From a virus (taxonomy: Duplodnaviria; Heunggongvirae; Uroviricota; Caudoviricetes), in IMG/VR virus record IMGVR_UViG_2778261537_000010, positions 1 to 4,687 of that record: a stretch of 4,687 bases of DNA; one strand, 5' to 3'. Of the stretch, positions 1-4,687 are shown piece after piece (position 1 is the first letter of the stretch; each line of letters opens with the position of its first letter). The position numbers were made by a program, and so were the translations under genes. The notes beneath the pieces were generated by a model that worked only from the letters and a program-made list of their open reading frames with translations, searched no databases and had not been told where the DNA came from.

Positions 1-813
1 CGCAAGGGGGCCACGGCTGCCAGCGGGTATATGCGCTGGGAAGGTGTCAGCGATGGCCTGAAGGTGACCGCCGGGAGCGTGATTCAGCGCGATGACCTGG
101 TTCAGTACATGGCAACTGCCGATGCAACCAGCTCCGGTGGTGTCCTGCGTGTGCCGATCACTTGCTCAACTACAGGCGCGGTCGGTAACGCTGACGACGG
201 TACGGCATTAATCCTGGTCACGCCGGTGAATGGTCTGCCGTCTTCCGGTGTTGCAGATACCCTGACTGGCGGATTCGATACTGAAGATCTGGAAACGTGG
301 CGCGCCCGCGTCATTGAGCGGTATTACTGGACGCCGCAGGGCGGGGCTGACGGGGACTATGTCGTCTGGGCTAAAGAAGTGCCCGGCATTACCCGCGCAT
401 GGACATACCGTCACTGGATGGGTACGGGAACTGTCGGTGTGATGATTGCCAGCAGTGACCTGATTAATCCCATTCCGGAAGAATCAACGGAAACGGCGGC
501 AAGACAACATATCGGGCCACTGGCCCCGGTGGCAGGCTCTGATTTGTATGTGTTCAGGCCGGTGGCACATACGGTGGATTTTCATATCCGCGTGACGCCG
601 GACACACCGGAAATACGGGCTGCCATCACCGCGGAGTTGCGTTCGTTCCTGCTGCGTGATGGTTATCCGCAGGGAGAACTGAAGGTATCGCGTATCAGTG
701 AGGCGATTTCCGGTGCGAACGGGGAATACAGCCATCAGTTGCTTGCACCGGCAGACAATATCTCCATTGCAAAAAATGAACTTGCGGTTCTGGGGACGAT
801 TTCATGGACGTGA
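1..813 (+). CDS. Baseplate J-like protein (Mu gp47 / P2 gpJ family), C-terminal part; 5' end lies upstream of the window
   Basis: The frame of the 31..813 ORF stays open back to position 1 (codons from nt 1: [11 protein letters not shown]...), so the gene begins outside the window. Sampled GC is high (41/60 over nt 301-360). The product is a soluble protein whose stop overlaps the start of the next gene (ATGGACGTGA, nt 804-813), which is typical of phage tail operons. Family assignment is from recalled similarity to baseplate J proteins and from gene order (J-like, I-like, fibre, chaperone), not from a search. Confidence 0.7.
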
Positions 814-1388
814 CAAACGATGATTACATCCGTCTGTTGTCGGCACTGCTGCCGCCCGGTCCGGCATGGTCAGCCAGCGATCCGGCGATTGCCGGTGCGG
901 CACCGTCATTAACCCGCGTTCATCAGCGTGCGGATGCCCTGATGCGGGAGCTGGATCCGCGCACCACCACCGAACTGATAAACCGCTGGGAGCGTCTGTG
1001 CGGCCTGCCGGATGAATGTATTCCCGCAGGGACACAGACCCTTCGCCAGCGTCAGCAACGGCTGGATGCGAAGGTTAATCTGGCGGGCGGCATCAATGAG
1101 GATTTTTATCTTGCACAGCTTGCTGCCCTGGGCAGACCAGACGCCACCATCACGCGATACGATAAAAGCACTTTCACCTGCTCATCGGCCTGTACTGACG
1201 CTGTGAATGCGCCGGAATGGCGGTATTACTGGCAGGTCAACATGCCAGCCGCCACCAACACCACCTGGATGACATGTGGCGACCCCTGTGATTCCGCACT
1301 GCGTATCTGGGGGGACACCGTTGTCGAATGTGTGCTTAACAAACTCTGCCCGTCGCATACCTACGTAATTTTTAAATATCCGGAGTAA
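804..1388 (+). CDS. Phage baseplate/tail protein, Mu gp48 / P2 gpI-like (DUF2313-type, YmfQ-like)
   Basis: 194-aa ORF with an ATG at 804 that overlaps the upstream stop by 10 nt. Its N-terminus ([23 protein letters not shown]...) matches my recollection of the YmfQ/gp48-like family found next to baseplate J in Mu-like prophages. It ends 3 nt before the tail fibre start. Confidence 0.7.
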
Positions 1389-1391
1389 TCC

Positions 1392-2024
1392 ATGCATCGT
1401 ATAGACACAAAAACCGCGCAGAAGGATAAGTTCGGCGCGGGTAAGAACGGTTTTACCCGTGGTAACCCCCAGACCGGCACGCCAGCCACCGATCTGGATG
1501 ATGACTACTTTGACATGTTGCAGGAGGAACTTTGCAGCGTGGTGGAGGCATCCGGTGCCAGCCTGGAGAAGGGGCGGCATGACCAGCTGCTTACAGCGCT
1601 TCGTGCGCTGCTGTTAAGCCGCAAGAATCCGTTTGGTGATATCAAATCGGATGGCACGGTGAAAACGGCTCTCGAAAACCTTGATTTGGGAGAGTTGGCC
1701 TTGGCAGGGGTAATGACAGGCCTTTTTGATACCAATGGCTATCTGAAACTCCCAGCAATTATTGATGGCAAGCGAAAAATTTTGATATTTCAATGGATGT
1801 CCATTTCAGCCAGTGCCACACCATCTTATTACAATTTACCTATCGCATGGCCAACCAGAGGGCTACATGCATTTGCTGTTGCTCAAACGGGGATTGATCA
1901 GTCAACCACTGCCTCTGCATTTATTGAAACTTCCTTGGTTAATCAACAAGTTTTTGTTAAGTGTATTAACTCTGCTGGGGCATTACAATCCCGTGGTGTT
2001 AGTTTATTTATGATTGGTATGTGA
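1392..2024 (+). CDS. Short tail fibre protein: conserved N-terminal anchor domain plus a divergent AT-rich C-terminal tip
   Basis: 210-aa ORF with a GGAG Shine-Dalgarno at 1381-1384, 7 nt upstream of the ATG at 1392. The N-terminus (MHRIDTKTAQKDKFGAGKNGFTRGNPQTGTPATDLDDDYFDMLQEEL...) is the recognisable conserved N-terminal region of enterobacterial prophage tail fibres. GC falls from 36/60 (nt 1441-1500) to 20/60 (nt 1921-1980) within the gene. It is followed directly by a chaperone gene. Confidence 0.7.
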   Translation: MHRIDTKTAQKDKFGAGKNGFTRGNPQTGTPATDLDDDYFDMLQEELCSVVEASGASLEKGRHDQLLTALRALLLSRKNPFGDIKSDGTVKTALENLDLGELALAGVMTGLFDTNGYLKLPAIIDGKRKILIFQWMSISASATPSYYNLPIAWPTRGLHAFAVAQTGIDQSTTASAFIETSLVNQQVFVKCINSAGALQSRGVSLFMIGM

Positions 2025-2032
2025 GAACAAAA

Positions 2033-2425
2033 ATGGATATTTCCTATAAATTCGCTAATGGCGTATTTTACCCCAGCGATATTGAATATAAATCGATTCC
2101 AGAGAGTGCGATTGATGTTACCTATGAAGAATATGCTAAAGCCATGAGACGTCCGACAGGTTATAATTTTACGGTGGACAAAGAAGGTATAGTAACGCTG
2201 ATTGAACATGTAATTTCAGAAGAAGAGTGGAAACTGGACATAGAGGCGCAACTTGCATTATTACGACAGAGGGCTGATAACGAAATAGGATGGCGGCAAT
2301 ATGCAGTTGAAAGAGGTAAAGCGACGGAAGAAGAAGTAGTTGCCTTAATTAAATGGCAGGATTACAAGTTAGAGTTAATGCGAGTAGATACATCAAACCC
2401 AGTATTGCCTACCATCCCTGAATAA
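2033..2425 (+). CDS. Tail fibre assembly chaperone (Tfa / P2 gpG / Mu U family)
   Basis: The ORF track starts this ORF at a GTG at 2021, which overlaps the fibre stop; I prefer the ATG at 2033 (MDISYKF...), but either start is possible. The C-terminus (...ALIKWQDYKLELMRVDTSNPVLPTIPE) fits the conserved W-x-x-Y-x-x-x-L-x-R-V-D ... P motif at the end of Tfa proteins. Position immediately after a fibre gene and low GC (21/60 over nt 2041-2100) agree. Confidence 0.7.
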   Translation: MDISYKFANGVFYPSDIEYKSIPESAIDVTYEEYAKAMRRPTGYNFTVDKEGIVTLIEHVISEEEWKLDIEAQLALLRQRADNEIGWRQYAVERGKATEEEVVALIKWQDYKLELMRVDTSNPVLPTIPE

Positions 2426-2433
2426 GATTATTC

Positions 2434-2461
2434 CCCTCTATCGCGCAATAACGATAGAGGG
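2434..2461. terminator. Candidate bidirectional intrinsic terminator between convergent genes
   Basis: Perfect 10-bp inverted repeat CCCTCTATCG (2434-2443) / CGATAGAGGG (2452-2461) with an 8-nt loop. It lies 8 nt after the chaperone stop (2423-2425) and 5 nt before the stop of the convergent - strand gene (2467-2469). Flanks are only moderately U-rich on either strand (ATTTATCAT on +, AATAATCTTATT on -), so terminator strength is uncertain. Confidence 0.45.
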
Positions 2462-2466
2462 ATTTA

Positions 2467-3783
2467 TCATCTCATTCTCTTGATAATAAAACCAAGTAAT
2501 ATGACAAATTGAACCAGAGAGCACAGGATTGAGAAATGGAGATACCTATAGTCAGATGCAGGGCTGACGAAGAAGTGAGGCACTGCAAATATGAAGCATG
2601 AGACGCCCAGCAACAAGCCTATACATTTTATACTGCTTCTGATAAAAATAAATGAAATTGTTGATACCAGAGCAAGAAGTAAATAAATCCATGGCAAGTA
2701 AATATAAGGCATAGATTTTACTGTTTCCACATATAAAGAGCTTGCCTTATTCGGTGTGAATGAGAACCCCCATTGGTTTTCAACACTTCCTTCCTGCACG
2801 ACCCATGCTGGAGTGCTACTACCAACCCTAAGCAATTCATTGAATGTGTCCAATCTTACTTTTAAGTAAGACAATGGGTTATTCTTTATTTCATAAATCC
2901 ATTTTTTACCAAGTGCATTGATTTCATCACTGTTTTCGGTTGTAAGATTGCCAGCCTTTGTATTGTAGAACATTAAATTGTTGCTCCCAGGCCAATAGAA
3001 AGACTTAACATTATTTTTGGTGATGCCGACTTTATCAACGATATATTCAGGAAGTAAAATATCTCCCTTTTCCACGCTCATACCAAGCAGATCATAGCTC
3101 TGTATATATTGAAGTGGTGATGTCTTGGTCACGGTAAGCGTGCTAACAATAAGCACAGGTAATGCTATTATTATTACGTTTGATACGATGTAAAAAGATA
3201 CTTTCTTGTATATGCTATTGCATTTTTTGTCATAATAAAACCACCATGCCATGATTACTAGTGCAACTGGAATGCCATTTGTTTTACTTCCGCATGCAAG
3301 CGCCATTATAAGAATCAGGATAATAAGCCTTGTTATAGACTGCTTGTTATTTTCGATGGAGTTGAATGTTATCCCAATGGACAAAATCATTAGTGATGAG
3401 AAAACGACGTCTTTCCATATCTGCGCGGTAATAAGAATAACTTGAGGTGCAGCTCCAGCTATCAAAATAGCAATAGATAAATAGCCTATTCTCTTATGTA
3501 AGGTTATAGATAAAAGGTAAAGACCAAGCCAATAACAAATCTGGTTTTGAATAAGAAAAATGCCAGGCCCAGAGTCGATTAAATTTAACTTGCTCCACCA
3601 CCATGCCATTATAACAGGTTGCCAAGAATTATAATGACCAGTAAGGGATTCATAATATTGAGTAGTGGAGTCAACGCTCATCCATCCAGGATAAAACGTC
3701 ATTGTACAAAACATCATGAATGCAAGTGATGTTAATATGTATATATATTTATAATTCAATTTACTATTTGACTTTAAGGGCAT
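2467..3783 (-). CDS. Polytopic inner-membrane protein of unknown function; candidate lysogenic-conversion enzyme (gtr-type / GT-C-like O-antigen glycosyltransferase is the leading hypothesis, by inference only)
   Basis: A 1317-nt ORF in roughly 35%-GC DNA (21/60 over nt 3301-3360); an uninterrupted frame this long in AT-rich sequence is strong evidence of real coding. The translation has about 8 hydrophobic segments in the first ~220 aa, with an acidic/aromatic loop after the first one (PGWMSVDSTTQYYESL). A ~150-aa hydrophilic region follows (TKTSPLQYIQ...SLYVETVKSMPY), then three C-terminal hydrophobic segments. Its size, AT-richness and convergent placement next to a tail fibre assembly gene resemble known prophage gtr(type) genes, but it could equally be a Wzy- or ligase-like protein or something unrelated. 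Confidence 0.6.
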   Translation of the reverse strand: MPLKSNSKLNYKYIYILTSLAFMMFCTMTFYPGWMSVDSTTQYYESLTGHYNSWQPVIMAWWWSKLNLIDSGPGIFLIQNQICYWLGLYLLSITLHKRIGYLSIAILIAGAAPQVILITAQIWKDVVFSSLMILSIGITFNSIENNKQSITRLIILILIMALACGSKTNGIPVALVIMAWWFYYDKKCNSIYKKVSFYIVSNVIIIALPVLIVSTLTVTKTSPLQYIQSYDLLGMSVEKGDILLPEYIVDKVGITKNNVKSFYWPGSNNLMFYNTKAGNLTTENSDEINALGKKWIYEIKNNPLSYLKVRLDTFNELLRVGSSTPAWVVQEGSVENQWGFSFTPNKASSLYVETVKSMPYIYLPWIYLLLALVSTISFIFIRSSIKCIGLLLGVSCFIFAVPHFFVSPASDYRYLHFSILCSLVQFVILLGFIIKRMR

Positions 3784-3927
3784 AAATACACTCTTTCAAC
3801 ATGTATAATAAAGTTATGAAATGTAGAGCATTATGCACCAATATTAGATTCTCTTCCATATATTAGTTAGAAATTGATGAGAAATATACCTCTCTGAACG
3901 GGAAAGTACAGAATTTTACAGTTGAAA
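3784..3927 (-). promoter_or_regulatory. AT-rich upstream region of the membrane-protein gene; probable promoter region, elements not resolved
   Basis: About 145 nt of very AT-rich non-coding sequence between the ATG at 3783 and the inferred IS terminus. On the - strand it contains -10-like hexamers (CATAAT, TATTAT, TATACA) and a weak Shine-Dalgarno (AAGAG) about 10 nt before the ATG. No confident -35/-10 pair could be assigned by eye. Confidence 0.25.
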
Positions 3928-4262
3928 TGACCTGCCCCCAGGATTAGATACAACTCTCAGTTAGTAACGTCGGAATCTTCATTCTCAGAATGACCCTTTC
4001 TCCAGCGCGCCGCAAATTCAGACGGTGTCTGATAATTCAGCGTGGAGTGCGGGCGGCACTCGTTATAATCCTGCCGCCAGTCATTAATGATTTTCCTGGC
4101 ATGAACGATATCGCTGAACCAGTGCTCATTCAGACATTCATCGCGAAATCGTCCGTTAAAGCTCTCAATAAATCCGTTCTGCGTTGGCTTGCCCGGCTGG
4201 ATTAAGCGCAACTCAACACAATGCTCAAAGGCCCATTGATCCAGGCAAGGGTTTCTGGTCTT
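3928..4262 (-). mobile_element. IS3-family insertion sequence remnant (one terminus plus the 3' part of the transposase gene); the 5' part of the element is missing
   Basis: Contains the C-terminal transposase fragment described in the next feature. On the + strand the sequence from 3928 (TGACCTGCCCCCAGGATTAGATACAAC) begins with TG and has a G/C-rich block like the terminal inverted repeats of IS2-group elements as I recall them. The upper boundary is approximate: recognisable transposase sequence is lost between roughly 4245 and 4280. Confidence 0.6.
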
Positions 4263-4277
4263 ATGGCAATAATAAAA
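3957..4277 (-). pseudogene. Truncated IS3-family transposase (OrfB), C-terminal ~100 aa only
   Basis: The - strand frame translates to ...LDQWAFEHCVELRLIQPGKPTQNGFIESFNGRFRDECLNEHWFSDIVHARKIINDWRQDYNECRPHSTLNYQTPSEFAARW..., the conserved C-terminal region of IS3-family transposases. The 84-aa ORF in the track begins at a TTG, and the frame stays open upstream only to an in-frame stop at 4278-4280. Residues before LDQWA do not look transposase-like, and the catalytic core and N-terminal half are absent. Confidence 0.7.
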
Positions 4278-4410
4278 TCATTACTGATACTGGCTGCGGT
4301 AGTTGAAACCGCAGACACGTCGTATGCAAGAACGTGCTGCGGTTGGCTGGTAAACTTCCGATAGTGCGAGTATTGAATGATTTCCAGCCGTTACTGATTT
4401 TACGTGCTAA

Positions 4411-4659
4411 TTAGTGAACAAACCACTCGTCAGCAGATTCCCAGGTATCTTTCAGAGTTTCCTGAACAAAAGTTTTAGCTGAATCTTTATCGGCGGTGCG
4501 CGTAACAGAAAGGCCATCGTTACTGGTGGCTTTTACGATCACCTCTACATCGTCATAACGCTTACTGATGCGTCGGGTTAATTCTTCCTTTAACGCATCC
4601 ACAGCACCGTTTGGCATTTTAGTCATTTTTTCTTTGGCTATGCAGATTTCAATACGCAT
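4411..4659 (-). CDS. DinI-family protein (DNA-damage-inducible protein I-like)
   Basis: 82-aa ORF ([35 protein letters not shown]...[17 protein letters not shown]) that shares the MRIE..IAK, DAL..EL.RRI, LSV, QET..WESAD.WFV pattern with E. coli DinI as I recall it. A GAGGG Shine-Dalgarno lies 6 nt upstream of the ATG on the - strand. It is too divergent from chromosomal dinI to use that symbol. Confidence 0.8.
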
Positions 4660-4672
4660 AAAAGTCCCTCTA

Positions 4673-4687
4673 TACTGTGTTTGTATA
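4673..4687. promoter_or_regulatory. Partial LexA (SOS) box cut by the window edge, upstream of the DinI-like gene
   Basis: The + strand reads TACTGT GTTTGTAT A at 4673-4687, i.e. the TACTGT half-site, an 8-nt spacer and the first base of the expected ACAG half-site, against the consensus TACTGT-N8-ACAGTA. The remaining bases lie beyond nt 4687. It sits about 12 nt upstream of the SD, where an operator would overlap the promoter. Confidence 0.3.

Follow-up and report, generated by a model that had tools for sequence, protein, structure and literature searches.

A low-GC tip joined to a conserved tail-fibre anchor at a probable relic Pin-family crossover site in an SfV/e14-like prophage

The tail-fibre gene studied here most probably (we put the probability at roughly 0.88) consists of a conserved anchor joined to a rare low-GC tip at a relic crossover site of the Pin family of DNA invertases, the place at which tips are swapped. 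The gene lies in a 4,687-nt stretch of viral DNA (IMG/VR record IMGVR_UViG_2778261537_000010), which was analysed in its entirety and is referred to below as the window. A first-pass annotation of the same DNA had proposed that a breakpoint in base composition within the fibre gene marks a swapped receptor-binding cassette, and our results support that proposal: we encountered neither homologues in which the whole fibre is uniformly low in GC and collinear, nor a gradual change in composition. The crossover site, a cause that the annotation had missed, explains both the location of the joint and its razor sharpness. In kind, this is known biology, namely ordinary tail-fibre mosaicism, with a new and rare cassette. 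Exchange of tail-fibre tips sets phage host range, and the window offers an unusually clean case, resolved to the base, of a crossover site acting as the joint. It is likewise an example of a once phase-variable switch whose decay has left the fibre fixed. The features of the window are as follows.

31-813: Baseplate_J gene, 3' part (Pfam Baseplate_J match)
804-1388: Mu gp48/YmfQ gene (Pfam Phage_Mu_Gp48 match)
1392-2024, + strand: tail-fibre gene, 210 aa
1392-1668, + strand: constant N-terminal part of the fibre (aa 1-92), which anchors the fibre to the baseplate; GC 0.55, GC3 0.64
1669-1694, + strand: 26-bp crossover site of the Pin/Din family of DNA invertases, CTCTCGAAAACC TT GATTTGGGAGAG, encoding ALENLDLGE
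1695-1957, + strand: receptor-binding tip module (fibre aa 102 to ~189); GC 0.42
1958-2425, + strand: last ~22 fibre codons (stop at 2024) with the chaperone gene, a separate module; GC 0.39
2033-2425, + strand: Caudo_TAP tail-fibre assembly chaperone gene (Pfam Caudo_TAP, E=2.6e-13)
2434-2461: G+C-rich hairpin separating the chaperone gene from the convergent glycosyltransferase gene, with a 10-bp stem that includes 6 G-C pairs
2467-3783, - strand: membrane-protein gene, 438 aa; GC 0.36
3928-4244, - strand: IS3-family transposase remnant; its ORF (3957-4211) encodes a C-terminal rve_3 fragment (Pfam rve_3, E=5.8e-31)
4302-4687, - strand: resumption of homology to ordinary SfV/e14-like prophages, including the DinI-like gene
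4411-4659, - strand: DinI-like gene (Pfam DinI, E=1.2e-19)

The window covers the tail end of an E. coli prophage of the SfV/e14 kind, whose baseplate is of Mu type; the baseplate, fibre and chaperone genes form a module collinear with that of phage SfV, and the gene order agrees. Nucleotides 1-1693 share 96% identity with phages SfV (96.1%), SfI, SfII and SfIV, and many E. coli prophages match this part as well. Coverage by the prophage of ETEC strain H10407 in blastn is limited to 1-1693 and 4302-4687. The closest complete genome is that of E. coli 2017.17.03CC (NZ_AP027829, locus L001), at 99.7% identity. The hairpin at 2434-2461 is the sole terminator-like site detected across 1300-4687 and is probably a bidirectional terminator, and SfV has an annotated terminator at the equivalent position.

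The joint between anchor and tip can be placed to the base. Identity was scored in 25-nt bins against relatives anchored on the crossover site (SfV, SfI, H10407 and locus L005), and remained at 88-100% in all bins through the site before falling, from the very next bin on, to the 8-48% of random sequence, which places the homology junction at 1694/1695, where the site ends. Over the constant part, 1392-1668, the bins gave 96-100% identity to SfV, SfI and the H10407 prophage, and blastn alignments to SfV, SfI, SfII, SfIV and the H10407 prophage all stop at nt 1693. The distribution of the two parts is as discordant as their conservation. Of 5,426 complete E. coli genomes, 1,609 have the N-terminal part (1392-1694) at 94-100% identity (SfV, SfI, SfII and SfIV have this part as well), whereas the tip with its chaperone (1695-2425) occurs in only 5. 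The first-pass annotation had suggested that separate searches with the fibre halves would expose mosaicism, and this sharp discordance does so. The membrane-protein gene was found in a single one of these genomes, which also has this tip and chaperone. Protein families divide the fibre in a similar manner, with some PHROG tail-fibre families matching only its N-terminal portion (aa 1 to ~105) and others matching aa 104-209 at E about 1e-10; the Pfam family Gp53-like_C (PF21882) matches aa 131-209 weakly, at 18.9 bits against a cut-off of 24.9 (E=0.0022).

The tip itself is rare wherever it was sought. It had no tblastn match in 50,697 phage records that might point to a donor, and it is absent from 185,579 species-representative genomes. 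A search of 5.8 billion proteins returned just two fragmentary proteins; in IMG/VR the tip occurs in one contig, which represents the same element, and in the metagenomes it occurs in one contig. No low-GC source organism can thus be named for the tip from the phage, genome, protein and metagenome sets searched.

Base composition changes at nearly the same place. A single maximum-likelihood change-point, fitted over nt 1-3950, was positioned at nt 1722 with a 2-lnL support interval of 1674-1756, separating a GC content of 0.574 on the left from 0.368 on the right; for the fibre gene alone, the observed likelihood gain was matched in 2 of 500 base shuffles. This estimate falls inside the interval 1690-1760 given in the first-pass annotation, and the homology junction lies at the left edge of that interval. 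The change-point overshoots the true joint by ~28 nt, to its right, because the cassette begins with ~40 nt that still have about 50% GC; the joint itself falls within the support interval. Measured in 60-nt windows, the transition is only ~60-80 nt wide, in keeping with the original description of an abrupt rather than gradual breakpoint within the gene, and the hand counts behind that description all proved exact (36/60 at 1441-1500, 20/60 at 1921-1980, 21/60 at 2041-2100, and 41/60, or 68%, at 301-360). Within the same reading frame, GC at third codon positions (GC3) declines from 0.64 over fibre codons 1-93 to 0.33 over codons 102-210. That low GC would persist through the two genes that follow had likewise been claimed, and is borne out by GC3 values of 0.33 for the chaperone gene and 0.37 for the membrane-protein gene, compared to 0.59-0.62 for the baseplate genes. 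The right end of the low-GC stretch is a GC change-point at 3928, which coincides with the end of the IS3-family remnant. Among 85 distinct IMG/VR loci, the mean drop in GC across the crossover site is 0.079, and the drop exceeds 0.05 in 75% of them; that of the window, 0.156, is the largest. Reduced GC on the right side of the site therefore characterizes the whole family, and does not in itself point to a single foreign donor.

The crossover site consists of two 12-bp half-sites flanking the core dinucleotide TT at 1681-1682. The published Pin site of prophage e14, pixL, reads TTCTCCCAAACC AA GGTTTTCGAGAG (PMC3241671, Table 3), and the site of the window agrees with the reverse complement of pixL at 24 of 26 bases. 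SfV, SfI and the H10407 prophage carry the exact pixL 26-mer at the corresponding position. The site is unique in the window, and none of 200 shuffles produced a match. For e14, the endpoints of P-segment inversion have been mapped experimentally to TTGGTTTGGGAGAAGG within stfP and an inverted copy in stfE, and the inversion is catalysed by PinE, PinQ and PinR (PMC12529663); inversion in e14 has also been shown experimentally elsewhere (PMC4272514). In the window, the second base after the core is changed from G to A (GGTTT to GATTT), a change common to strains with this tip. All listed hix, gix, cix, pix and mix sites have G at this position, and the nix sites have C (PMC3241671). Substitution at so conserved a position may leave the copy of the site in the window non-functional. 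In practical terms, the 26-mer provides an annotation marker with which fibre genes of the StfP/SfV type can be divided into anchor and tip.

Relatives of the window retain the complete switch. In H10407 (locus L002), the site at 3669-3694 is accompanied by an inverted partner at 5549-5574, 1.85 kb away, with the sequence TTCTCCCAAACCAACCTTTCAAATAT, i.e. TTCTCCCAAACC AA CCTTTCAAATAT. The partner is located 60 bp upstream of a gene whose identity is 100% to the DNA invertase annotated in phage SKA5 and ~79% to phi80 pinL, and the segment between the two sites holds two cassettes of tip and chaperone in opposite orientation. The junction predicted to follow inversion, with both sites cut at their core dinucleotides, is in frame, and this predicted junction was found in 29 genomes at 98-99.5% identity. 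Strain TW14425 expresses the cassette that is silent in H10407, and the endpoint of the inversion is at the core dinucleotide (L002 5562 = L008 3599). Both orientations of the segment occur naturally in relatives. The site in intact relatives thus forms the left end of an invertible segment of ~1.8-1.9 kb, situated beside pin and containing two alternative tips, each with its chaperone, and inversion at the core dinucleotide joins either tip in frame to the constant part.

The window has only part of this arrangement. Searches with the exact site, with a loose Din consensus, with the inner half-site and at up to 7 mismatches recovered only the one copy of the site in the window, and the 12-kb locus of NZ_AP027829 likewise yielded no second site at up to 7 mismatches. 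For pin, a tblastn search of the window with the H10407 invertase gave no match better than E=1.6; a second tip and chaperone cassette was not found in the window, and neither was a remnant of gtrV (tblastn). Lacking partner site, second cassette and pin, the window retains its site as a relic. The region that holds the second cassette and pin in relatives is occupied here by the membrane-protein gene, which encodes a predicted GT-C glycosyltransferase, and by the IS remnant. These have taken the place of the second cassette, the partner site and pin, which have been lost, so that the fibre is locked on one tip. The deletion that took out pin and the second cassette, perhaps along with gtrA and gtrB, is probably marked by the IS3-family remnant. 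The window thus presents a single site without an invertase, from which any past use of this copy is not visible. The Fis-bound recombinational enhancer of such systems normally resides inside the invertase gene, which is absent from the window. SfV-type phages carry a gtrA-gtrB-gtr(type) operon beside attP and int; tblastn detected no remnants of gtrA, gtrB or int in the window. The IS3-family remnant has its element end, TGACCTGCCCCC, at 3928 and is annotated in NZ_AP027829 as a partial integrase-core CDS; the stretch 4245-4301 separates it from the resumption of homology at 4302. Beyond this point the closest genome and H10407 differ. In L001 (8747-10801), prfC comes immediately after DinI and an integrase is lacking, whereas in L002 (6341-7748) DinI is followed by an integrase and dusA, so that either the chromosomal surroundings of the two elements differ or this end has been lost from the window-type element.

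The same tip occurs on unrelated anchors, always beside a form of the site. It is carried on an SfV/StfP-type anchor in the window and in strain P470 (L003), and in strain 4588 (L004) on a fibre from a phage whose baseplate is of the DUF2612 type, where the shared sequence begins ~52 nt to the left of the site. On a human-gut contig (L139), a tip with 77% protein identity is fused to a long P2 H-like fibre at the joint site TTCTACAAAACC TT GGTCTGGGAGAA, and nucleotide homology to the window begins at window position 1675, inside the site. A more distant tip (58% aa identity) in locus L009 also follows a degenerate site. More broadly, in 90 usable IMG/VR loci the 300 nt immediately right of the site sort into 26 unrelated clusters, most of which are lower in GC than the constant part; the cassette of the window was not found among these 26 clusters. 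The site and the ~50 nt preceding it are near-identical across otherwise unrelated fibre genes and most probably serve as a portable joint for the exchange of tips between phages, which explains why homology breaks off exactly at the final base of the site and why composition steps down there. As to the route, we infer homologous recombination across the conserved site region and, more rarely, invertase-mediated exchange between elements; the comparative data fit both, and the order of events that we propose is of the same inferential kind. In L004, the conserved stretch of ~78 bp that ends in the site (5923-6000) codes for SRKNPFGDIKSDGTVKTALENLxLGE, with the rest of the fibre N-terminus unrelated, and in L139 (4975-5000) the P2 H-like fibre retains only the site-encoded NLGLGE part.

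We considered whether the GC step might lack historical meaning, arising from amino-acid composition, codon selection or local mutation bias in a vertically inherited gene. A shared local bias is conceivable, given that in this family the mean GC of the variable cassettes is below that of the constant part; the step is, however, greatest at third codon positions (0.64 to 0.33), which rules out amino-acid composition as its cause. It also coincides with a total loss of homology to about 1,600 genomes, and the same tip is joined to unrelated N-termini. With the two halves of the gene so discordantly distributed, this explanation is already refuted, and we regard its chances as negligible. A second alternative retains the history of exchange and differs in its present state: the site could still be an active switch, with partner site, second cassette and invertase outside the window or supplied in trans, such that the tip still phase-varies. 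Pin-family invertases do act in trans between prophages, PinQ and PinR being able to invert the e14 segment (PMC12529663), and the site matches pixL at 24 of 26 bases. Against this stand the lack of a second site at up to 7 mismatches in both the window and the 12-kb NZ_AP027829 locus, the end of the NZ_AP027829 prophage at DinI with prfC next to it, the substitution of the conserved G beside the core, and the occupation of the space for second cassette and pin by the GT-C gene and the IS remnant. Continued switching is therefore highly unlikely, albeit somewhat less so than a step without history, and a relic site remains our preferred reading.

The extent of the transferred DNA is a separate matter. 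According to the first-pass annotation, the tip, the chaperone and the membrane protein were acquired as a single low-GC block from a source other than that of the baseplate genes, and one event with one foreign donor would account for the similar GC3 of the three genes (0.33, 0.33 and 0.37). It would also fit the single complete E. coli genome with the membrane-protein gene, which carries tip and chaperone too, and an unrelated phage (L009) with a different tail module, in which a homologous trio of tip, chaperone and membrane-protein genes has the same order and orientation. Divergence within the stretch is nonetheless uneven. Compared to strains P470 and 4588, the window is identical from the site to 1957 except at 1-2 positions (1902-1903), only ~75% identical from 1958 through the chaperone gene, and without homology beyond 2419, where both strains have an acyltransferase gene after the chaperone in place of the membrane protein. 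Synonymous divergence (dS, by the method of Nei and Gojobori) relative to P470 rises from 0.08 in the tip to 1.15 in the chaperone, with a junction near nt 1958, and relative to L009 it is 1.14 for the membrane-protein gene and 2.8 for the chaperone, with the tip saturated. The family-wide trend to lower GC right of the site further weakens composition as a sign of common origin, and no donor lineage was found, with the tip absent from all of the species-representative genomes. The low-GC stretch thus has junctions beyond 1694/1695 at about 1958, about 2420-2466 and 3928, and in view also of the dS contrasts it is pieced together from no fewer than three modules (1695-1957, 1958-2425 and 2426-3927). 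Arrival as one block, although it keeps the support of composition and of synteny with L009, is not established and seems to us improbable; a loose association of the three genes is possible given that synteny. The joint at 1957/1958 is a second recombination joint in the fibre gene, ~65 nt before the stop codon, and suggests joint inheritance of the very C-terminal end of the fibre and its chaperone.

Mosaic tail fibres joined at Din-family sites have long been known from the G segment of Mu (Gin/gix), the C segment of P1 (Cin/cix), the P segment of e14 and the Min system of p15B. In systems of the Mu G, P1 C and p15B Min type, which switch host range through the tail fibre, cassettes have been exchanged among unrelated phages at the crossover-site joint. 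The window shares with these three a constant N-terminus joined to tips and chaperones of the alternative kind at a Din-family site (for a list of sites, see PMC3241671), and differs from them in that its switch has decayed to one fixed cassette. The closest parallel is the e14 P segment (pinE, stfP/stfE, tfaP/tfaE, pixL and pixR), which has a StfP N-terminus of ~95% nucleotide identity to that of the window, a 26-bp site at the same codon position, and a tip with a Caudo_TAP chaperone to the right of it. Unlike e14, the window has no pin, pixR, second tip or second chaperone, its site carries the change from GGTTT to GATTT, and its tip is unrelated in sequence to those of StfP and StfE and much lower in GC. 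Phages SfV, SfI, SfII and SfIV resemble the window at 96% nucleotide identity over the baseplate J gene, the gp48-like gene and the fibre N-terminus to 1693. They also share the order of fibre, chaperone, terminator and an oppositely oriented membrane glycosyltransferase gene, and, in the fibre gene, a lone pixL 26-mer whose flanks contain no annotated invertase gene. In contrast to these SfV-type phages, the window has another tip and chaperone, a glycosyltransferase without detectable similarity to GtrV or GtrI, and an IS3-family remnant and DinI where gtrA, gtrB, attP and int are absent.

The 438-aa membrane protein may prove to be of interest in its own right. It is polytopic, with a confidently predicted GT-C glycosyltransferase fold, and matched no Pfam, NCBIfam or PHROG family. 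Its gene takes the place and strand of gtrV in SfV and gtrI in SfI; sequence kinship to GtrV or GtrI was rejected (hhalign probability <1%). An N-terminal GT2 domain is present in 22 of the 58 homologues found (in homologue P0035, GT2 occupies residues 36-200 and the region of homology residues 283-709). In relatives from E. coli and Citrobacter (43-45% identity), the gene follows genes for a small EamA-like protein and a GT2 enzyme, beside ugd and his, and in more distant relatives (44-51%) it adjoins sugar-epimerase and other polysaccharide-synthesis genes. Residue D38, just after the first helix in the motif PGWMSxDS, is invariant in 27 homologues and may correspond to the catalytic Asp, the conserved acidic residue that GT-C enzymes have in their first extracytoplasmic loop. 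The fusion to GT2, or the neighbouring GT2 and small transporter-like protein, points to a putative role in sugar transfer from a polyprenyl-phosphate donor. Such an arrangement recalls GtrA-GtrB-GtrC systems and ArnT, which share the GT-C fold: as in GtrA-GtrB-GtrC, the homologues are fused to or placed beside a GT2 polyprenyl-phosphate glycosyltransferase and a small flippase-like protein, and the gene in the window adjoins the fibre genes of a prophage. Unlike GtrA-GtrB-GtrC, however, the protein in the window stands alone, with neither GtrA nor GtrB, and its family has no Pfam, NCBIfam or PHROG model. We infer that it is an orphan O-antigen-modifying glycosyltransferase whose GtrA/GtrB-type partners were lost to the IS event or act in trans. 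Further phage copies of the gene were limited to one IMG/VR contig, which is from the same prophage.

With its place in the prophage serotype-conversion slot and relatives in O-antigen clusters, the GT-C family is a candidate for a new O-antigen-modifying enzyme, a side finding that may outweigh the breakpoint itself in worth. A more speculative extension, to which we give little credence, is that tip, chaperone and GT-C O-antigen-modifying enzyme form a linked module for binding and modification, in which the enzyme would alter the very receptor bound by the tip, and which moves between unrelated tail types via relic invertase sites. If so, a phage would gain a host-range determinant and the matching block to superinfection together, and the GT-C protein would found an undescribed phage-borne family of serotype-converting enzymes that works without a GtrA and GtrB of its own. 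The gene is intact in the window; in L001 (5694-7024), an IS2 element is inserted in it, flanked by a 5-bp duplication of window positions 2689-2693, and in the IMG/VR copy L137 similarity to the window is lost after nt 2885, within the gene. Different acyltransferase-family genes occupy the same slot in other loci (L003 7466-9439 and L005 5604-6671), on the opposite strand just 3' of the fibre and chaperone genes. Judged by position, these would be O-antigen acetylation genes, and the slot after the chaperone appears to be a general site for surface-modification cargo.
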